DNA of 64,000 nucleotides from an uncultured beta proteobacterium (GTDB lineage: Bacteria > Pseudomonadota > Gammaproteobacteria > Burkholderiales > SG8-39), in NCBI GenBank assembly GCA_963735025.1, contig CAVTJG010000009.1, positions 744,122-808,121 on the forward strand. Direction: 5' to 3'. Shown in pieces: positions 53,853 to 63,401 of the stretch (position 1 is the first letter of the stretch; the number at the start of each line of letters is the position of its first letter). The translations under genes were made by a program, and so were the position numbers. The notes below the pieces were generated by a model. The model worked only from the letters and a program-made list of their open reading frames with translations. It was not told the origin of the DNA and made no database searches.

Positions 53853-54998
53853 TCAGCTTCGGAGCTCGAGGCCGATGTGGGAGAACGCGACCGCGAACAG
53901 CGAGTCGACGATGAGCACGATCGTGATGGCGGTCACCACCGACTGGGTGGTGCCGGCGCCAAGACTCTCGGTGTTCGGTCGGATTCGCAGGCCGAAGTGG
54001 CAGGCGGTCAGCGCGATCAGCGCGCCGAACACCGCTCCCTTTCCGAGCCCGAGCCAGAGGTTCGAAGTTGGCACCGCGACCGGAAGTGTTTGCATGAAAA
54101 GCGTAAAGCTGATGTCGAGCTCGAGTCGCGCCGCGAGCATCGCGCCGACGAGGGCGATCGCGCTGGTCCAAACGACCAGGAGCGGCACCGCGATCGTGAG
54201 TCCCACGACCTTCGGCAGAATCAGCCGGATGCCGGCGGGAATTCCCATCACGTTGAGCGCGTCGAGCTCTTCGGTCACCCTCATCACACCGAGCTGCGCC
54301 GTGATTGCCGAGCCCGACCGCCCGGCAACGAGGATCGCAGCGAGTACCGGCCCGAGCTCGCGGATGATACCGATGCCGACGATGTTGATGACGTAGATCC
54401 CGGCGCCGAAAGTCCGCAGCTGTTCTGCGGAGAGATAGCTCAGCACGATTCCGATGAGGAAGCCGACGAGCGCGGTGATGGGGAGTGCCTGCGCTCCTGC
54501 CCGGTGGAGCGTCGCCGACATCTCGCGCCAGGGGCCGCGCGACAGATTGGCGATCACCCATGCGCCGTCGAGCGCGACCTGGCCGGCGAGGCGGACGATA
54601 CCGGCGAGATGACTCCCGACGGTGATCATGCGTCGCCCGAGCGCCGCAAGCGGATCGAGCAGCGAGCGCCGCAGCACGGTGCGCTCGCCTTCGTCGGCAT
54701 GGGCGAGGTTCTCGAAGAAAAGCTCCTGCTCGGGTTCTATCCGGAGTTGTGCGGGGCGCTTTCGCTCCCACGCGCGCCAGAGGAGCAGCGCGCCGACGTA
54801 GTCCAGGCGCTCGATACCGGTCAGGTCCCAGGCGTCGCGCGCGGCGAATCGCGCGAGCTCGCCGCCCAGCGCGCTTGCGCGGGTTTCGAGCGCGCGAATG
54901 TCCCACGCTCCACCGACCCGGATGGTGCGCGTGCCGTCCGCGCTCAGCTCGGCGTCGATCTCGGGATCGCGGATCCGCTTGGGCGCAGGCTCGGCCAT
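53853..54998 (-). CDS. MlaE-family ABC permease with an N-terminal STAS-like domain
   Basis: ORF 53853..55106, with the likely start at ATG 54998. A roughly 110-aa soluble N-terminal region (TIRVGGAWDIRALE...WDLTGIERLDYVGALLL) is followed by the MlaE core (VGIGIIRELGPVLAAILVAGRSGSA). Confidence 0.85.
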   Translation of the reverse strand: MAEPAPKRIRDPEIDAELSADGTRTIRVGGAWDIRALETRASALGGELARFAARDAWDLTGIERLDYVGALLLWRAWERKRPAQLRIEPEQELFFENLAHADEGERTVLRRSLLDPLAALGRRMITVGSHLAGIVRLAGQVALDGAWVIANLSRGPWREMSATLHRAGAQALPITALVGFLIGIVLSYLSAEQLRTFGAGIYVINIVGIGIIRELGPVLAAILVAGRSGSAITAQLGVMRVTEELDALNVMGIPAGIRLILPKVVGLTIAVPLLVVWTSAIALVGAMLAARLELDISFTLFMQTLPVAVPTSNLWLGLGKGAVFGALIALTACHFGLRIRPNTESLGAGTTQSVVTAITIVLIVDSLFAVAFSHIGLELRS

Positions 54999-55084
54999 CG
55001 AACATTGCCCGGCGTGCGTTGCCGCTGCGCCGGTTTCCTCCCCTGTTGTTGCACGAAGCGAAGGGCCACACCCCCTCGCGCTCC

Positions 55085-55121
55085 CCAAAATCAGGAGAAC
55101 TGCCAAACAACGGCAGTTCTC
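55085..55121 (-). terminator. putative rho-independent terminator after the ClpX-like gene
   Basis: A perfect 10-bp stem (gagaactgcc, 55095-55104 / ggcagttctc, 55112-55121) is followed on the minus strand by CTGATTTT. Confidence 0.45.
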
Positions 55122-55205
55122 TCTCTGGCTGTTCAGGCTGAGGCTAGCAAATTAATGCCGCCTCGGCCATTGTGGAAAATCCGGCGGATGTGCCTGCGAC
55201 GGCGT

Positions 55206-56216
55206 TCAACCCGCGCGTGGGCCGTGAACCATGCGCGGCTCGACGAACAGGGACGCGATCTCGACTTTCCGGATCGTGGGGTCGTCGGGGACCTGGTACA
55301 GGACCGGGGTGATCAGCTCCTCGAAGAGCCCGCGCAGGCTGCGGGCCCCGGTCTTGTACTCGATCGCCAGGTCGGCGATCTGCTCGAAGACGTCGCGATC
55401 GACCGTCAGCTCGACGCCCTCGTCCGCGAAGATATCCCGAAACTGGGAGTACATGGCGTCGGCGGGCTCGGTCATGATGCGCACCAGCATGTCCCGGGTG
55501 AGATCCTGGAAACGCGCCGTGATCGGCAGCCGCCCGGTGAACTCGGGGATGAGCCCGAACTCGATCAGGTCGGTTGGCTTGACGCGCGCGTTGAGGCGAT
55601 CGAGGACGGCGGGATTGTCCTCGCCCGATGTGGAGATGTAGCCGTATGTATGGCTGTGCGAGGCGATCTTCTCCAGTCCGACGAAGGCACCGCCGCAGAT
55701 GAACAGGATGTTCGTGGTATCGAGGTACTGGCCGGTGCCCAGCTTGACCATGCAGCCTTCCATGATCTTCAGGAGCGCGTGCTGCACGCTCTCTCCCGAG
55801 ATGCCCTGAGGCTGTCCCTTCGTCCCCTTGAGCTTGTCGATCTCGTCGATGAAGACGATGCCGTTCTGGGCGCGATCGATGTCGCCGTCCGCGCCGTCGA
55901 CGAGGCGCTGCAGGATCGCCTCGATCTCGTCGTTGACATACCGGCTCTGCGCAAGCGAGGTGGCCTCCGCCGTCACGAACGGCACACGCAGCGCCCGCGA
56001 CAGCGTCTCGCACATCAAGGTCTTGCCCGTTCCGGTGGGCCCGATCAGGAGGACGTTGCTCTTGGCAATCGGTGCGGCGCCGCGGCGCGAGCGCGCGATC
56101 TTCTTCACGTGCGTGTACACGGCGACGGCCAGCGTCCGCTTGGCGTCGTCCTGTCCGATCACGTACTGATCGAGGTACTTCACGATGAGGCTCGGCTTGT
56201 TCACGGCTTCTGGCAC
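55206..56216 (-). CDS. ClpX-like AAA+ ATPase lacking the zinc-binding domain
   Basis: ORF 55206..56336. The start is uncertain (GTG 56216 or 56204; neither these nor ATG 56336 has an obvious SD). It is collinear with ClpX from YLDQYVIGQDDAKRTLAVAVY. It has Walker A (GPTGTGKT), Walker B (IVFIDEIDK), LIPEFTGRLP and TGARSLR. Confidence 0.8.
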   Translation of the reverse strand: MPEAVNKPSLIVKYLDQYVIGQDDAKRTLAVAVYTHVKKIARSRRGAAPIAKSNVLLIGPTGTGKTLMCETLSRALRVPFVTAEATSLAQSRYVNDEIEAILQRLVDGADGDIDRAQNGIVFIDEIDKLKGTKGQPQGISGESVQHALLKIMEGCMVKLGTGQYLDTTNILFICGGAFVGLEKIASHSHTYGYISTSGEDNPAVLDRLNARVKPTDLIEFGLIPEFTGRLPITARFQDLTRDMLVRIMTEPADAMYSQFRDIFADEGVELTVDRDVFEQIADLAIEYKTGARSLRGLFEELITPVLYQVPDDPTIRKVEIASLFVEPRMVHGPRAG

Positions 56217-56455
56217 GGCGGGGTTCCGGAGGTGACGATCTCCAACAATAGCGCTTCTGCGCCCATCCTGTTCCTTGTTCCCTGTTGGCGGCAAGGTTAA
56301 TCGGCTGGCACAGCGCGATTTGCATGTGCGGTGCATGCCGGGGATCGTTGGTGGTTGGGGACCGCGTTGCTATACTGGGTGCGTGAGTCGTCGAGTCACC
56401 GATGGCCGCGAATATTCGTTGCTGATGTTCTTCGAAAGTTTATTGGAGCTGATAG

Positions 56456-56734
56456 ATGGCGCGCATGGTCAAGTGCATCAAGCTCGGGCGCGAAGCCGAG
56501 GCGCTCGACTTCCCGCCACTCCCCGGTGAGCTCGGCAAGCGGCTCTACGAGAACGTGTCGAAGGAATCTTGGAAGCAGTGGCTCGAGCACCAGAAGATGC
56601 TGGTGAACGAGAATCAGCTCAATCTCTCCGACAAGAAGGCGCGCGACTATCTCCTGAAGCAGACGGAGAATTATTTCTTCGGTACCGGCGCGGACGTTGC
56701 CGCGGGCTACGTCCCGCCGGGACAGAAAAAATAG
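56456..56734 (+). CDS. yggX: oxidative-damage protection / Fe(2+)-trafficking protein YggX
   Basis: 92-aa ORF: [52 protein letters not shown]. Confidence 0.9.
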
Positions 56735-56807: not shown

Positions 56808-57209
56808 ATGAGCAGTGATACGCCACAGCCGACCGACATCAAGCTGCATCAGAAGTCGCGGGTGCTGGAGCTCTCGTTCGCCGACGGTCAGACCTTCAAG
56901 TTGCCTTGCGAGTTTCTGCGCGTCTACTCGCCGTCGGCCGAAGTGCGCGGCCACGGCCCGGGACAGGAAGTACTCCAGGTCGGGAAGAGCGACGTGGAGA
57001 TCTCCCAGATCGAGCCGGTGGGCAGTTACGCAATCCAGCTCACATTCTCGGATGGCCACGACACCGGCATCTACTCGTGGGACCTGCTGTACGAGTACGG
57101 CCTGCACCAGGAGGAGATGTGGCGGAGCTACCTCAAGCGCCTGGAAGAGGCTGGCGCGAGTCGCGCCCCGGGCCCCGCACCTTACGCGCAGCGGCCGCAA
57201 TCGAAGTAG
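56808..57209 (+). CDS. DUF971 (gamma-butyrobetaine hydroxylase N-terminal-like) domain protein
   Basis: 133-aa ORF with LELSFADGQTFKLPCEFLRVYSPSAEVRGH ... VGSYAIQLTFSDGHDTGIYSWDLLYEYG, matching the DUF971 pattern. Confidence 0.85.
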   Translation: MSSDTPQPTDIKLHQKSRVLELSFADGQTFKLPCEFLRVYSPSAEVRGHGPGQEVLQVGKSDVEISQIEPVGSYAIQLTFSDGHDTGIYSWDLLYEYGLHQEEMWRSYLKRLEEAGASRAPGPAPYAQRPQSK

Positions 57210-57281: not shown

Positions 57282-58742
57282 ATGAATAAGCCGCTGCATC
57301 CAGAAATGTTGTCCCGCGCCGCACCGAGCGTGGCAGCGAAGGCGACCGACTCCTTCCGCGTCGTTCTCATCAACCCCTACGAGCTCGGCCGTCAGCCGTT
57401 TGCCTTGGCCGAACCCGCCGCCTGGCTGAAGCGCTCGGGATTTCCCGTGTCTTGCCTGGATCTCTCGCTGCAGAAGCTCGATCCCGAAGTACTGACCGGT
57501 GCGGGACTGGTGGCGATCTACGTGGGCATGCATACGGCCACCCGCATTGCGATCGAGGCATTGCCTCGCATCAAACAGCTCGCCCCACGGGCGCACATCT
57601 GCGTCTACGGGCTGTACGCCCCGATGAACGAGGCGCGCCTGCGCACGTTGGGTGTCGACTCTGTGCTGGGCGGCGAACTGGAGCCCGCGCTGCTATCGCT
57701 GTGCGAACGGGTGTGCGCCGACCGAACGTCCACGACCCAGCGTGAGCCGCTCGTCAGCCTGGCGAAAATACGATTCGAGGTACCGGACCGCAGTGTCCTG
57801 CCGAAACTTTCCCGGTACGCTCATCTCGTGCTGCCGGACGGATCGACTCGCACCGTGGGCTTCGCGGAGGGCAGCCGCGGCTGCAAGCACTTGTGCCGGC
57901 ATTGCCCGGTGGTTCCTGTGTACCAGGGAAAATTCCGGATCGTCCCGACGGACGTGGTAATTCAGGATATCGCGCAGCAGGTCCACGCAGGCGCCACGCA
58001 TATTTCGTTCGGCGATCCGGATTTCTTCAACGGCTCCACGCATGGTCTCAAGCTGGCGCGCGCCTTGCACGACGCGTTCCCGCATGTCACGTTCGACGCC
58101 ACCATCAAGATCCAGCACCTCATCGACCACGCCGAGCTGTTGCCCGAATTGCAGCGCTGCGGGTGCCGGTTCATCACGACCGCAGTGGAAGCGGTGGATG
58201 ATGAGATCCTGCTTCACCTCGCCAAGAACCACACCAGTCGCGACTTCGACAAGGCGGTTGCGCTGGTCCGCGCAGCAGGAATCGCGCTCGCCCCGACGTT
58301 CGTTGCATTCACGCCCTGGACGACGCTCGATGGCTACATCGCCATGCTCGAGCGGCTCGTCCAGCTGCAGCTCGTGGAAAGCGTTCCCCCGGTGCAGCTC
58401 ACGATCCGGCTGCTCGTTCCGGAGGGTTCGTATCTCCTGCAGTTGCCCGGGTTCCCGGAACAGCTGCTGGGTTTCGATCCTGCGCTCCTCGGCTACCGGT
58501 GGCGTCATGCCGATCCGCGTGTGGACCGGCTCCAGCAAGCTGTGCAGGATTGCGTGGCGCAGAGCGAGCGGGAAGGGCTCGCACGACGAGAAGTCTTCGC
58601 GGCCGTCTGGCACATGGCCCATGCGGCTGCCCGGCGCCGCGCACCTGAGCTTGCCGGCGATCTCGGGTCGCCGATCCCGCGGCTATCTGAGCCGTGGTAC
58701 TGCTGCGCCGAACCGACCGAATCGCAGCTCCAGTCTTTCTGA
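57282..58742 (+). CDS. radical SAM protein with an N-terminal B12-binding-like domain and a C-terminal CCAEP tail
   Basis: 486-aa ORF with a CxxxCxxC cluster motif (GCKHLCRHCPV, 57882-57905). The N-terminal Rossmann-like region is VVLINPYELGRQP...VAIYVGMHT. The tail is PWYCCAEPTESQLQSF (Cys-Cys codons at 58701-58706). Confidence 0.85.
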   Translation: MNKPLHPEMLSRAAPSVAAKATDSFRVVLINPYELGRQPFALAEPAAWLKRSGFPVSCLDLSLQKLDPEVLTGAGLVAIYVGMHTATRIAIEALPRIKQLAPRAHICVYGLYAPMNEARLRTLGVDSVLGGELEPALLSLCERVCADRTSTTQREPLVSLAKIRFEVPDRSVLPKLSRYAHLVLPDGSTRTVGFAEGSRGCKHLCRHCPVVPVYQGKFRIVPTDVVIQDIAQQVHAGATHISFGDPDFFNGSTHGLKLARALHDAFPHVTFDATIKIQHLIDHAELLPELQRCGCRFITTAVEAVDDEILLHLAKNHTSRDFDKAVALVRAAGIALAPTFVAFTPWTTLDGYIAMLERLVQLQLVESVPPVQLTIRLLVPEGSYLLQLPGFPEQLLGFDPALLGYRWRHADPRVDRLQQAVQDCVAQSEREGLARREVFAAVWHMAHAAARRRAPELAGDLGSPIPRLSEPWYCCAEPTESQLQSF

Positions 58743-58754
58743 TCGCTCCGCACC

Positions 58755-60014
58755 ATGCACCGCGTTCTGCTGTTGTTTCCGACCACCAGTTACCGCAACG
58801 TGGATTTTCTCGCTGCCGCGAAAAAGCTCGGCGTGGAAATCGTCGCCGCGGCGGACTACTGTCACCAACTCGCCCCGTCCTGGGGTCTGCCGCCGATCAT
58901 GGCCCTGCATTTCGACCGGCCCGAGCAGGCGGCGGACACTGTTCTGCGGGAGCTCGCGGGCAAGCCCACCGCCGTGCTGGCGGTGGACGATTCGGGAGTG
59001 GAGCTCGCTGCGTTGCTGACGGAGCGTCTCGGTCTGCCGGGAAACCCTGTTCATGCGGTGCAGCGCGTGCGCGACAAGCTGGCGTTCCGTCGACTGCTTC
59101 GCGAGCATGATTTCCTGTGCCCCGATTTTAGGCACCTGCCGACCGGCGTGGACCCTCGCTCACTGTCACGGGATCTGAAGTATCCCGTGGTGGTGAAAGC
59201 GCGGCGGCTTTCGGCGAGCCGCGGGGTGATTCGCGCCGACGATGCCGATGCACTCGTGCGAGCCGTGAACTGGGTGCGGGCCATCCAGTCCCGCGCCGAT
59301 CGTGATGCCCGGGAGCTGGGCATCCTCATCGAGGACTTCATACCCGGTCGCGAATATGCCCTCGAAGGCACGCTGGAGCGCGACGGCCTGACCATGCTCG
59401 CCCTTTTCGACAAACCCGATCCGCTGGACGGGCCGTATTTCGAGGAGACGCTCTACGTCACGCCTTCCCGGTTGCCGGGCGAGCTCCAGCACCGCTTGCA
59501 CCAGGAAGTCGCGCGAGCATGCCACGCTGCCGGGCTGGTGACCGGTTCGATTCATGCCGAGGTGCGTATCAACGACCGCGGCATCTGGATCCTGGAGATT
59601 GCGCCGCGCTCCATCGGCGGCCTGTGCGGGCGGATGCTCACCCATTCGCTCGGCATGACGCTGGAGGAATTCATCCTGCGCCAGGCCATTGCAGATCCGC
59701 GGCCGGTACGGAGCGCGGGCGGCGCGTCGGGCGTGATGATGATCCCCGTTCCGCGCCGCGGCATTTATCATGGCATCGAGGGGCTGACTGCCGCCCAGTC
59801 CGTGCCTGGTGTGACCGGACTGACCATTTCGGCGCAGCCCGGTCAGATCATCGCGCCGCCTCCCGACGGCGCGAGCTATCTGGGATTCATCTTTGCGCGC
59901 GCGGAGCATCCTGAGGAGGCCGAACGCGCGTTGCGAATGGCGCATTGCGCGCTGACGTTCGACATCCGTCCCGAGTATCCGGCGATGCTCGCGCCTGCAG
60001 CCGAAAAGGCATGA
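58755..60014 (+). CDS. ATP-grasp domain ligase (L-amino-acid-ligase-like)
   Basis: 419-aa ORF starting 12 nt after the radical SAM stop. ATP-grasp elements are present: DKLAFRRLLREH, YPVVVKARRLSASRGV, ILIEDFIPGREYALEG and IHAEVRINDRGIWILEIAPRSIGG. Confidence 0.85.
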   Translation: MHRVLLLFPTTSYRNVDFLAAAKKLGVEIVAAADYCHQLAPSWGLPPIMALHFDRPEQAADTVLRELAGKPTAVLAVDDSGVELAALLTERLGLPGNPVHAVQRVRDKLAFRRLLREHDFLCPDFRHLPTGVDPRSLSRDLKYPVVVKARRLSASRGVIRADDADALVRAVNWVRAIQSRADRDARELGILIEDFIPGREYALEGTLERDGLTMLALFDKPDPLDGPYFEETLYVTPSRLPGELQHRLHQEVARACHAAGLVTGSIHAEVRINDRGIWILEIAPRSIGGLCGRMLTHSLGMTLEEFILRQAIADPRPVRSAGGASGVMMIPVPRRGIYHGIEGLTAAQSVPGVTGLTISAQPGQIIAPPPDGASYLGFIFARAEHPEEAERALRMAHCALTFDIRPEYPAMLAPAAEKA

Positions 60015-60041: not shown

Positions 60042-60461
60042 CTAGAACGGCTTCACGACGACGAGTATCACCGCCGCAACGAGGAACAGGACCGGCACCT
60101 CGTTGAACCACCGGAACCAGACGTGCGACTTCGTGTTCCGATCACTCTTGAAATTCTTCATGAGCTTGCCGCACCACAGGTGGTAGACGACGAGCGCCGC
60201 CACCACCGCCAGCTTTGCGTGTAGCCAGCCGCCCGCGAAGCCGTAGCCTAGCCACAGCCAGGTGCCGAAGACGATCGTCAGCACCGCGCTCGGCGCCATG
60301 ATGCCGAAATAGAGCTTGCGCTCCATGATCTTGAAGCGCTCGTTTCCCGCCTTCTCCGTGGGATCGATCATCGCGTGGTAGACGAACAGGCGCGGGAGAT
60401 AGAAGAGGCCGGCGAACCAAGTGACCATGAAGATGATGTGCAGGGCTTTTATCCAGAGCAT
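60042..60461 (-). CDS. hemJ: protoporphyrinogen IX oxidase HemJ (UPF0093 family)
   Basis: ORF 60042..60545. The family-typical N-terminus (MLWIKALHIIFMVTWFAGLFYLPRLFVYH) starts at ATG 60461. The upstream extension reads through a repeat insert. Confidence 0.85.
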   Translation of the reverse strand: MLWIKALHIIFMVTWFAGLFYLPRLFVYHAMIDPTEKAGNERFKIMERKLYFGIMAPSAVLTIVFGTWLWLGYGFAGGWLHAKLAVVAALVVYHLWCGKLMKNFKSDRNTKSHVWFRWFNEVPVLFLVAAVILVVVKPF

Positions 60462-60605
60462 GGTGCTATATCCATCGACGACCACCTGATTTGGGGGATA
60501 TACAAGGGGCGGGAAGGGGTGAGGGGGCCCCTTCCCTTCCCCCATAGCCCCTTTGTTCGATTGTGACCATGAAGATGACGTGCAGGGCTTTTATCCAGAG
60601 CATGG
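60421..60605. repeat. 43-bp direct duplication of the hemJ start junction flanking a 99-bp hairpin insert
   Basis: gtgaccatgaagatgaYgtgcagggcttttatccagagcatgg occurs at 60421-60463 and 60563-60605 (42/43 identical). The spacer 60464-60562 has ttgggggatatacaagggg, a nested stem (GGGAAGGGG 60511-60519 / CCCCTTCCC 60528-60536) and cccctttgttcg. Confidence 0.85.
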
Positions 60606-61397
60606 CTAGGAAAGCAATCGTTTGCGAAACAGGATGAGCGCAGCGTAAAAGGCGACCGCGCCGTACGCGATCAGCACCAACAAGTGTAGCGCGATGTCCG
60701 CAGGAATTTCGCCGAGCAGCAGCGGGCGCACGAGCAAGGTGGCATGCGTGAGCGGCAGTGCGTGCGAGACGATCTGGATGCCCGCGGGCAGCTGATCGAC
60801 CGGGAAGAAGACGCCGGAAAGCATCGCCATCGGCGTGATGAACAGCGTGAAGTAGTACATGAAGAAATCGTACGAGGGCGACACCGCCGTCACGACCAGC
60901 CCGAGCCCGCTGAACGCGAAGCCGATCACCGGGATGAGCGGCAGGACCCAGAGCGCGAGCCAGCTCTTGAGCAGACCCAGCGCCGCGGCCACCAGCAGGA
61001 TCGCCAGGCCGGAGAGGAACGACTTGCTCGCCGCCCACGTGCATTCACCGAGCACGATGTCCTCCAGCGCGAGCGGCGCGTTCAGCATGGCATCCCAGCT
61101 GCGCTGCACCTGCATGCGCGAGAAAGAGGAATAGAGGGTCTCGAACGTCGCGCTGTTCATGGTCGAGAAGCAAACCGTCCCGGCCGCAAGATAGACGATA
61201 TACGGAACGCCATTCACTTCCGGGAGCAGCCTGCCCAGACCGTAACCGAAGCCGAGCATGTAGATCATCGGATCGGCCAGATTGCCGAGCATCGAGGGCA
61301 CCGCGAGCTTTTGCCAGACGAGGAACATGCGGCGCCAGACGGCCGTGAAGCGCCACGAGAGCTGCGGCGGCGCGAACGAATAGGCGGCCGGGATCAT
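60606..61397 (-). CDS. nodJ: ABC-2 type exporter permease (NodJ-like)
   Basis: 263-aa ORF with six TM segments, downstream of the NodI-like ATPase gene. Confidence 0.8.
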   Translation of the reverse strand: MIPAAYSFAPPQLSWRFTAVWRRMFLVWQKLAVPSMLGNLADPMIYMLGFGYGLGRLLPEVNGVPYIVYLAAGTVCFSTMNSATFETLYSSFSRMQVQRSWDAMLNAPLALEDIVLGECTWAASKSFLSGLAILLVAAALGLLKSWLALWVLPLIPVIGFAFSGLGLVVTAVSPSYDFFMYYFTLFITPMAMLSGVFFPVDQLPAGIQIVSHALPLTHATLLVRPLLLGEIPADIALHLLVLIAYGAVAFYAALILFRKRLLS

Positions 61398-61421
61398 GAT
61401 GCCATCTCGTCGATCAGGAAG

Positions 61422-62372
61422 TCAGTCACGCAGCTCCCTTCCGGTCAGCTTTAGGAACACGTCCTCCAGGTTGGCGGGCCGGTGCAGGTAGCGAAGCTCC
61501 GGCTCGTGCTCCAGGCTCGCGAGGAGTGGCGTGTCATCCGTGGTGTAGCAGAACACAGTGTCGCCCGCCCGCTCGATGCGGCTGGCCAGTGCGCGTCCCG
61601 TTCGTTCCGTCCAGGCGTCCGTGCCGTCGCCGTGCACCTCGACCACGTGGCGTTCGATATGCCGGCGCACGAGCTCGCGCGGCGCGCCCGCGGCAATGAT
61701 CTGGCCGCGATCGATGATCACCAGCCGGTTGCACAGCCGCTCGGCTTCCTCCATGAAATGCGTGGTGAGCAGGATGGTCTTGCCCTGTCCCGTAAGACGG
61801 CGCAGCCGCTCCCAGATGAGGTGGCGGGCCTGCGGATCGAGCCCGGTAGTCGGCTCGTCCATGAAAACCACGTCCGGGTCGTTGATGAGCGCCCGCGCCA
61901 AGGTGAGCCGGCGCTTCATTCCGCCCGAGAGCGTCGCAATCTTCGACTCGGCACGGCCCGCGAGCCCGGCGAATTCCACGAGTCCCGGAATGCGCGCCCG
62001 CAGCACCTCGGCGCGGATGCCGAAGTATCGGCCGTAGACGAGCAGGTTCTCGGCCACCGTGAAATCGGGATCGAGGTTGTCCATCTGCGGGACCACGCCG
62101 ATCCGCATGCGCGCTTCGCGGCCGCGCGCGGGAACCGGCTTGTCGAGCACGGTGATCTCGCCGGCGTCCGGAGTGGTGAGTCCGAGCGCGAGTCGCAACG
62201 TGGTCGTTTTGCCCGCGCCGTTGGGGCCGAGCAATCCGAAACACTCGCCGCGCCGGAGCGAGAAATCGATGCCCGCCAGGACTTCCTGGGCCCCGTACGA
62301 CTTGCGCAGGCCGCGTACGCTGAGCACCGTGCCCGCACCCTGCTCGCCGGCTGAAATGTCGGGCTCGATCAT
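61422..62372 (-). CDS. nodI: ABC exporter ATP-binding protein (NodI-like)
   Basis: 316-aa ORF with GPNGAGKTTT, LSGGMKRRLTLARALINDP, DEPTTGLDPQARHLIWERLR and GKTILLTTHFMEEAERLC. It is closely collinear with the rhizobial NodI I recall. Confidence 0.85.
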   Translation of the reverse strand: MIEPDISAGEQGAGTVLSVRGLRKSYGAQEVLAGIDFSLRRGECFGLLGPNGAGKTTTLRLALGLTTPDAGEITVLDKPVPARGREARMRIGVVPQMDNLDPDFTVAENLLVYGRYFGIRAEVLRARIPGLVEFAGLAGRAESKIATLSGGMKRRLTLARALINDPDVVFMDEPTTGLDPQARHLIWERLRRLTGQGKTILLTTHFMEEAERLCNRLVIIDRGQIIAAGAPRELVRRHIERHVVEVHGDGTDAWTERTGRALASRIERAGDTVFCYTTDDTPLLASLEHEPELRYLHRPANLEDVFLKLTGRELRD

Positions 62373-63092: not shown

Positions 63093-63401
63093 CTATATGC
63101 GCAGCCGCTCGACGACGCGCCCGTGCACCAGGTGCTCGTCGATGATTTCGTCGATGTCGGTCTTGTCGACGTAGGTGTACCAGACCTCTTCCGGATACAC
63201 CACGATGACTGGGCCCTCGTCGCAGCGGTCCAGACACCCGGCGGTATTGATTCGCACCTTGCCCTCGCCACTCAGCTTGAGCGCCTTGACGCGGTCTTTC
63301 GCATACGCGCGCACATCCTTCGCGCCGCGGTCCGCACAGCAGGCCTCGCCCGGCTCGCGCTGGTTGCAGCAGAAGAAGACGTGATGCTTGTAGTAGCTCA
63401 T
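63093..63401 (-). CDS. thioredoxin-like [2Fe-2S] ferredoxin
   Basis: 102-aa ORF with the Cys ligand pattern HVFFCCNQR...ACC...AGCLDRCDEGPV. Confidence 0.85.
   Translation of the reverse strand: MSYYKHHVFFCCNQREPGEACCADRGAKDVRAYAKDRVKALKLSGEGKVRINTAGCLDRCDEGPVIVVYPEEVWYTYVDKTDIDEIIDEHLVHGRVVERLRI

Follow-up and report, generated by a model that had tools for sequence, protein, structure and literature searches.

A widespread radical SAM and ATP-grasp gene pair related to ArsL as a candidate pathway for an amino-acid-derived small molecule

The window analysed here, a stretch of 64,000 nucleotides from an uncultured beta proteobacterium (contig CAVTJG010000009.1, positions 744,122 to 808,121), carries a two-gene cassette in which a gene for a radical S-adenosylmethionine (SAM) protein with a CCAEP tail (57282-58742, + strand, 486 aa) is followed by a gene for an ATP-grasp ligase (58755-60014, + strand, 419 aa); all coordinates are those of the window. 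We favour, tentatively, the view that the cassette is a two-enzyme small-molecule pathway and, with no firmer confidence and by analogy, that its first enzyme is an ArsL-like transferase that would use a tail-bound atom to build a γ-substituted 2-aminobutyrate, from which the ligase would make a dipeptide. The two open reading frames (ORFs) are real genes and not chance ORFs, because of their strong scores against the NF040546 and Pfam profiles given below, and the spacer of only 12 nt makes it probable that the ATP-grasp gene is co-transcribed with the radical SAM gene. The positions and lengths of the ORFs, the cluster motif, the spacer and the convergent hemJ gene beyond them are all as given in the original prediction, which was made from the sequence alone.

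The radical SAM protein is a member of NF040546, the family of CUAEP/CCAEP-tail radical SAM (seleno)proteins, which it matches with 599.5 bits (E 4e-180; curated cut-off 500), residues 27-484 aligning with profile positions 1-467 of 468; Radical_SAM (PF04055) is matched with 44.9 bits. The original prediction had named this family, rightly, and knew of no substrate or pathway assigned to it, which agrees with the literature, where we found no function-assigning paper for NF040546 (a linkage to ATP-grasp or yggX genes was not specifically searched for). It is mentioned in a preprint by Haft, which calls these selenoproteins, marked by their rare CU motif, "uncharacterized" (10.1101/2022.07.06.499078). 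The family is very abundant, with at least 8000 candidates at E <= 1e-10 in a word-index search and 1700 representatives at E <= 1e-10 in a library clustered at 50% identity. It is thus already known that the family is catalogued, and the window gene is an ordinary Cys-type member of it; what appears to be new, judging from sequence comparison, is an ArsL-like enzyme with a different tail and physiological setting and probably another acceptor.

In the AlphaFold (AF2) model of the protein (predicted local distance difference test, pLDDT, 71), a five-strand beta/alpha flavodoxin/B12-like N-domain (about residues 26-146) precedes the radical SAM core, which forms a partial TIM barrel; two long helices (412-449) come next, and the C-terminal tail is flexible. 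The best Foldseek matches of the whole model are AprD4 (E 6e-14), OxsB, TsrM and MgmA, and the N-domain alone matches corrinoid proteins. The B12-binding-like N-domain of the original prediction is thus upheld at the level of the fold, but not by the Pfam B12-binding profile (PF02310), which finds no match in the protein at E <= 0.01. The [4Fe-4S]/SAM cluster motif, CKHLCRHC (residues 201-208; 57882-57905, + strand), has the form CxxxCxHCP in the family, and 65 diverse family members and four ArsL-type proteins all have its three cysteines (C201, C205 and C208). The first ~25 residues (57282-57360) lie outside the family profile, which starts to match at residue 27; they are weakly conserved in orthologues and modelled with very low confidence, and translation may in fact begin at a codon downstream of 57282.

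Among characterised proteins, ArsL stands by far the nearest to the family on sequence comparison and forms its sister group. ArsL (NF040542, RCCLKC-tail), which serves in the biosynthesis of the arsenic antibiotic arsinothricin, is the second-best NCBIfam match of the window protein, at 273.2 bits, and other radical SAM families reach 40 bits at most. Plasmid-encoded ArsL-type proteins are collinear with the CCAEP-tail family and show 30-34% identity over about 400 aa. Common to both are the N-domain, the blocks RGC.H.C..C, F.D.DF, SA.E, PTF..F.PW, IQ...RL and Y.W.H.D..D.L, and about 20 invariant core positions; moreover, in the MAFFT alignment the CC pair of RCCLKC coincides with C[CU] in W[YF]C[CU]AEP. 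In the ArsL reaction, SAM is cleaved reductively to methylthioadenosine and a 3-amino-3-carboxypropyl (ACP) radical, which goes to As(III); the tail is not the site of an auxiliary cluster and is dispensable for SAM cleavage, yet is needed for formation of the C-As bond, and the assays in which ArsL is active in vitro list no cobalamin (10.1101/2024.02.01.577332). All three tail cysteines of ArsL bind arsenic (10.64898/2026.04.29.721666). These ArsL papers report no sequence determinant of the mode of SAM cleavage.

In the window the C-terminus of the CCAEP-tail protein reads ...SEPWYCCAEPTESQLQSF and includes the motif W472-Y-C474-C475-A-E-P478 (58695-58715, + strand), a putative acceptor-binding or redox pair; residues 470-486 have pLDDT values below 50 and are predicted to be flexible or disordered, in line with the mobile tail assumed in the original prediction. 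We compared 80 genome loci from distinct species, by record title mostly Burkholderiales and other Betaproteobacteria with some Gammaproteobacteria such as Acidiferrobacterales and Arenicellales, and 80 distant metagenomic loci whose products are 39-46% identical to a CU-type representative. The genome-locus orthologues are 61-89% identical, and SEPW[YF]CCAEPT is invariant in all 80; C-[CU]-A-E-P is found in 80/80 of the metagenomic loci. Among the 65 diverse members E470, W472 and C474 are 100% conserved; apart from the three cluster ligands, no cysteine is invariant but C474, next to which stands C/U475. C295, considered as a third conserved substrate-binding cysteine, was discarded, being only 69% conserved in these members. 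In one locus (L171, 5511-6988) the radical SAM gene is called as two pieces of 390 and 43 aa, which is probably a frameshift in a long-read assembly and not a real pseudogene.

Many family members carry selenocysteine (Sec) in this pair. The original prediction had put Sec at the first cysteine of the tail; this is not so, the order being C-U, with Sec at the second. The motif W[YF]C-TGA-AEP[TS]xxQ, running on in frame past the TGA, is found in 60 of the 80 distant metagenomic loci, and about one third of 150 diverse representatives stop at ...EPW[YF]C, as is characteristic of gene calls that end prematurely at a TGA. The 45 nt past this codon fold more strongly in CU loci (n=59; mean -15.2 kcal/mol, z -1.3) than in CC loci (n=100; mean -9.7 kcal/mol, z +0.2; Mann-Whitney p ~1e-13). 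A selenocysteine insertion sequence (SECIS) stem of 6 bp begins 17 nt into the TGA-anchored alignment. Its pairing reaches 89.8%, compared with 43-52% for slid partners, and it also covaries: it shows 62 double-change cells, where shuffles give 19.7 +/- 8.2 (0/500). Because the in-frame TGA, the stronger fold and the covarying hairpin come together, Sec at position 475 of CU-type members is genuine. The TGA and hairpin that the original prediction proposed to look for do exist, therefore, although at the codon equivalent to 58704-58706 and not 58701-58703. In the window this codon, that of Cys475 (58704-58706, + strand), is TGC, and the window copy is thus a Cys form and no selenoprotein. As for riboswitches or other regulatory RNAs, Rfam gave no match in the window region at E <= 1, nor in 10 diverse loci at gathering thresholds.

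A cultured example of the CU type is found in Thermomicrobium roseum, on the megaplasmid NC_011961.1 (locus L161, 6935-8371). The RefSeq coding sequence, WP_012643191.1, ends ...ESWFC at the TGA; beyond it AEPLEDPSGP... can be read in frame until a stop some 72 nt further on, and 17 nt past the TGA there is a GGACCC/GGGUCC hairpin. Since the motif frame runs on and the hairpin lies beyond the TGA, the annotated protein is, by its sequence, a selenoprotein cut short at its Sec codon. The radical SAM gene of this organism has an aminotransferase gene and an MFS transporter gene at its flanks.

The second gene of the cassette belongs, by its domains, to the L-amino-acid-ligase type. Its product matches ATP-grasp_4 (PF13535) with 99 bits and LAL_C2 (PF18603) with 61.5 bits; its best relative in the PDB is the L-amino-acid ligase BL00235 (3vot; E 3e-32, residues 53-393), with BacD at 1e-7, and the NCBIfam matches to DdaF and BacD are weak and far under the cut-offs. 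Of the loci that reach 1.5 kb or more downstream, 48/69 genome loci (70%) and 28/49 metagenome loci (57%) have an ATP-grasp gene directly downstream on the same strand, and five and one more, respectively, have it elsewhere in the locus. The usual spacer in genome loci is 5-20 nt, and the two genes stay linked even when identity between the ligase and the window copy drops to 32-48%. An amino-acid-ligase-type partner conserved in other genomes, as the original prediction supposed, is thus well founded. Among plasmid matches to the window ligase, uncharacterised ligases adjoining EamA/DMT transporters are better than those linked to ArsL.

ATP-grasp ligases of this type also occur with ArsL, in all four of the ArsL-type plasmid islands that we inspected. 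The Pantoea and Klebsiella islands (L162, 5016-10867; L165, 6001-11842) run ArsR / ArsL-like-CMD-family protein-ATP-grasp-MFS-ArsM-CobW GTPase-aquaporin, and in those of Bacillus and Priestia (L163, 1142-2970 and 6004-9146; L164, 2175-3996 and 5998-9134) CMD-ATP-grasp-ArsR lies ~3 kb upstream of ArsL-MIP-CobW; the CMD protein is small and CMD/AhpD-like. The island ligases match ATP-grasp_4, and in Bacillus also LAL_C2 and ATPgrasp_N. They were dismissed as the closest kin of the window ligase, to which they are only ~22% identical. Because of this distance, and because the characterised Burkholderia gladioli arsQML cluster has no ATP-grasp gene, the association of radical SAM enzyme and ligase is best described, from these sequences, as a functional pairing that recurs in both sister clades and not as strict co-inheritance. 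ArsL-type islands may encode a route to an arsinothricin-containing peptide; a full-text search found no paper linking arsinothricin to an ATP-grasp enzyme, its single match being on another topic. That these islands also carry an ATP-grasp gene strengthens the small-molecule reading of the cassette.

A persistent neighbour besides the ligase is yggX, whose product Pfam and NCBIfam name an Fe(2+)-trafficking / oxidative-damage protection protein, and which in the window lies at 56456-56734 (+ strand; NF003817 132 bits, cut-off 74). It is a small gene, normally present once per genome, and its linkage to the cassette is for this reason far above chance: among loci with both flanks it is found within 3 kb of the radical SAM gene in 21/50 genome loci and 10/22 distant ones (~45%), upstream on the same strand, convergent beyond the ATP-grasp gene, or convergent right after the radical SAM gene where the ligase is missing. 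We conclude that yggX is a conserved neighbour across lineages, and it is likely to be accessory to the cassette. Between it and the radical SAM gene the window has a DUF971 / GBBH-like_N gene (56808-57209, + strand; PF06155 113 bits), with spacers of 73 nt on the yggX side and 72 nt on the radical SAM side. DUF971 is found upstream, often overlapping the radical SAM start, in 32/50 proteobacterial loci, and had to be given up as a universal partner, since it is present in 0/22 distant loci. Of the two genes whose co-occurrence the original prediction wished to see examined, then, yggX is linked across lineages and DUF971 reflects lineage synteny in Betaproteobacteria only. The Fe-S scaffold HCF101 has DUF971 as its C-terminal domain (PMC7980591). 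Five loci have a ubiE-like methyltransferase ORF, called by eye, between DUF971 and the radical SAM gene.

Iron-sulfur genes recur around the cassette. According to precomputed Pfam annotation, the order in the cultured Variovorax sp. LjRoot84 (L167, 6000-17236) is VIT1-yggX-DUF971-radical SAM-ATP-grasp-Rrf2-sufBCDSU-sufT-Rieske, VIT1 being an iron transporter; the cassette lies directly downstream of sufD-sufS-sufU-nfuA...Rieske in a second locus (L171, 1-8260), and after a CDGSH Fe-S protein and a MetE-like gene in a third (L172). SUF genes adjoin it in ~5 loci and an A-type Fe-S carrier in seven, so that we dropped the SUF operon as an obligate neighbour and regard it as a recurrent theme, not a rule. 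DUF169 (PF02596, ~240 aa, four cysteines in the representative) is found in or beside the cassette in ~16 loci, between the radical SAM and ATP-grasp genes in L003, L004, L007 and L031, and also at L040, L084, L103, L107, L113, L134 and L154. One preprint places DUF169 beside hgcA-like and merR genes in Nitrospina; papers on DUF169 and YggX revealed no direct connection. In seven distant loci (L102, L108, L112, L116, L124, L130 and L139) a POT/PTR2-family di/tripeptide permease gene (PF00854, 218 bits) is adjacent to, and divergent from, the CU/CC-tail radical SAM gene, which may fit a peptide product or substrate, lineage synteny being the alternative. At one locus (L029, 36-914) a bona fide ArsM gene (SCC, LGCGNP, SNCVINL, GCVAGAL) lies 1.4 kb upstream of yggX-radical SAM-ATP-grasp, set off by an opposite-strand membrane protein; no other arsenic gene lies close to the 160 loci, and the location of this one is probably coincidental.

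How might the two enzymes work together? Family membership, conservation of the tail, use of Sec, gene linkage and the sister relation to ArsL are shown by the sequences; the mode of SAM cleavage, the acceptor and the product we infer by homology with ArsL. The [4Fe-4S] cluster bound by CxxxCxxC would cleave SAM reductively at its C-gamma-S bond, giving methylthioadenosine and the ACP radical. This radical would be caught by a soft atom, a chalcogen or a metal(loid) and probably not arsenic, held between Cys474 and Cys/Sec475 on the flexible C-terminal tail, and the product of the radical step would be a gamma-substituted 2-aminobutyrate. The ATP-grasp enzyme, to judge from its family and its conserved adjacency, would then activate a carboxylate as an acyl phosphate and join the new amino acid to a second one, yielding a dipeptide-like product. 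YggX, joined in Betaproteobacteria by DUF971 and often by SUF proteins, could be a partner in Fe-S maintenance or a marker of the physiological setting: the context of yggX, DUF971, SUF and A-type carrier genes may support an oxygen-labile cluster in aerobes or, alternatively, the product of the cassette may itself act in iron/Fe-S homeostasis or oxidative stress. In its fullest form, the proposal is that the enzyme forges a C-S, C-Se or carbon-metal bond on a tail-borne atom, and that the resulting amino acid, of a kind not described before, is built into a dipeptide that serves iron/Fe-S homeostasis or protection from oxidative stress in thousands of soil and sediment bacteria of several phyla; we consider this complete version rather unlikely.

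Several observations weigh against the ArsL-like pathway. The regiochemistry of SAM cleavage is not readable from sequence, and the window protein does not reach the ArsL cut-off of 450 bits. The CCAEP-tail family differs from ArsL in its cluster motif (CxHCP against CxYCS), in its invariant His317, and in a helical insert of ~55 aa before the tail, and its tail offers two thiol(ate)/selenol ligands where RCCLKC has three cysteines. The distance between the window ligase and those linked to ArsL, and the lack of a ligase in the B. gladioli cluster, count on the same side, as does the absence of an ATP-grasp gene from ~23-41% of the loci with adequate flank. Finally, the very high conservation of the family, together with a housekeeping, Fe-S-rich setting in which genes for export or resistance are missing, is not what one expects of a typical cluster for an antibiotic.

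The foremost alternative is that the enzyme generates a 5'-deoxyadenosyl radical that abstracts a hydrogen atom from a small-molecule or peptide substrate, the ligase acting before or after the radical step, and that the Cys-Cys/Sec tail is a mobile redox pair, which would donate H atoms or work as a disulfide/selenenylsulfide shuttle, as the tail does in thioredoxin reductase or in class I ribonucleotide reductase. Vicinal Cys-Sec, in this order and on a flexible tail, is a hallmark of thioredoxin reductase, and Sec in place of Cys is typical of redox-active residues. The canonical CxxxCxxC, the class-B-like architecture, the disorder of the tail in the model and the divergence from ArsL around the cluster motif would all fit, and the best structural matches (AprD4, OxsB, TsrM, MgmA and MiaB) are mostly 5'-deoxyadenosyl-radical enzymes. 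Against this, ArsL, the one close relative that is characterised, also has CxxxCxxC and yet makes the ACP radical, and its tail serves to bind substrate and not for redox chemistry (10.1101/2024.02.01.577332). Moreover, 11 residues or more separate the CU pair from the C-terminus, and the pair stands within the strongly conserved E-x-W-[YF]-C-[CU]-A-E-P-T, unlike GCUG-COOH, and the cassette has no partner flavoprotein or redox domain. The likeness to thioredoxin reductase drawn in the original prediction therefore holds for the vicinal Cys-Sec on a mobile tail, but the substrate-binding tail of ArsL is the closer parallel by homology, with its CC pair aligned and the score of 273 bits. We regard the redox tail as a possibility to be taken seriously, if an improbable one on balance.

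There are two further readings. The enzyme could be isofunctional or nearly so with ArsL, transferring ACP to arsenite or a metalloid such as Sb(III), with the ligase making an arsinothricin-type peptide. The sister relationship to ArsL, the ligases of the ArsL-type islands and the genuine ArsM gene at L029 speak for it, and the Haft preprint ties CU motifs to heavy-metal chemistry (10.1101/2022.07.06.499078). Nevertheless arsenic is, on sequence grounds, an unlikely acceptor, because the third, arsenic-binding tail cysteine of ArsL (10.64898/2026.04.29.721666) is missing, the score of 273 bits falls short of the ArsL cut-off, and ArsR, ACR3, ArsC, aquaglyceroporin (MIP), CobW, CMD and ArsN1 were all absent from 1.8 Mb of flanks of the 160 loci. 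The setting, furthermore, is chromosomal, housekeeping and Fe-S related, and the very high conservation across orders is unlike a sporadic resistance or antibiotic trait, all of which makes an ArsL-like function in the strict sense highly improbable. [quoted passage not shown] Pairs of radical SAM and ATP-grasp enzymes are known in RiPP pathways, and yggX persists as a neighbour in several arrangements and phyla; Dph2, for its part, moves ACP onto a protein (cited in 10.1101/2024.02.01.577332). Spacers of 5-20 nt in most loci leave no room for a precursor gene, however, and no ORF that could encode a precursor peptide fits the cassette spacers, as the original prediction had also seen in the window; there is no conserved cluster of small ORFs near the cassette, the radical SAM protein has no SPASM/twitch or RRE domain and no extra conserved cysteine, and the ATP-grasp protein bears the LAL_C2 domain of ligases acting on free amino acids. 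In addition, yggX is an ordinary housekeeping copy that passes NF003817 and in one locus (L060) adjoins a MutY-like ORF called by eye. A protein- or peptide-modifying pair is thus very unlikely.

Other genes of the window stand apart from the cassette. hemJ (60042-60545, - strand), convergent on it, was rejected as a part of the cassette, as it is found at only 2/80 loci and is incidental. Further flanking ORFs, called by eye at 53853-56336, 60606-62372 and 63093-63401 (all - strand), seem to encode an MlaE-like permease whose N-terminal region is of the STAS type, an AAA+ ATPase resembling ClpX, a NodIJ-like pair of ABC-2 exporter proteins and a [2Fe-2S] ferredoxin of the thioredoxin-like kind. 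In other genomes none of these genes is kept beside the cassette. A promoter/terminator scan gave signals no more numerous than expected from shuffled sequence.

To our knowledge, ArsL is so far the sole radical SAM enzyme that has the canonical CxxxCxxC and is known to combine non-canonical SAM cleavage with formation of a carbon-heteroatom bond. Its authors foresaw more such enzymes within the radical SAM superfamily, and the CCAEP-tail family is its nearest relative and much more abundant. Knowledge of the acceptor atom and of the product would test non-canonical SAM cleavage as a general strategy, would explain the rare Cys-Sec motif and could reveal a new and widespread metabolite; cultured hosts exist in Variovorax sp. 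LjRoot84 and Thermomicrobium roseum.

Among known systems, the best structural matches come from cobalamin-dependent (class B) radical SAM enzymes and from AprD4, which does not depend on cobalamin, and the N-domain resembles corrinoid-binding domains; B12-radical SAM families in NCBIfam give several weak matches only, all far under the family cut-offs. The L-amino-acid ligases BL00235 (3VOT), BacD/YwfE and DdaF have ATP-grasp_4 and LAL_C2 in common with the window ligase, at low identity in every case; whereas the bacilysin and dapdiamide ligases are partnered by a dedicated pathway for a non-proteinogenic amino acid, the partner of the window ligase is a radical SAM enzyme. Thioredoxin reductase (GCUG) and MerA (CC) carry, as does the CCAEP tail, a vicinal pair on a flexible C-terminal segment, with no homology between them and the CCAEP-tail protein. 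In MerA the cysteine pair binds a soft metal and passes it to the active site. In thioredoxin reductase, Gly-Cys-Sec-Gly stands at the extreme C-terminus of a flavoprotein, whereas the CCAEP tail, with different flanking residues, belongs to a radical SAM enzyme. ArsL has the same B12-like N-domain, CxxxCxxC radical SAM core and C-terminal extension ending in vicinal Cys-Cys. Its tail, however, is the Cys-only RCCLKC, whereas W[YF]C[CU]AEP frequently contains Sec, and the CCAEP-tail family, which has no ars context, is far more widespread and conserved, and lives beside yggX and Fe-S genes.

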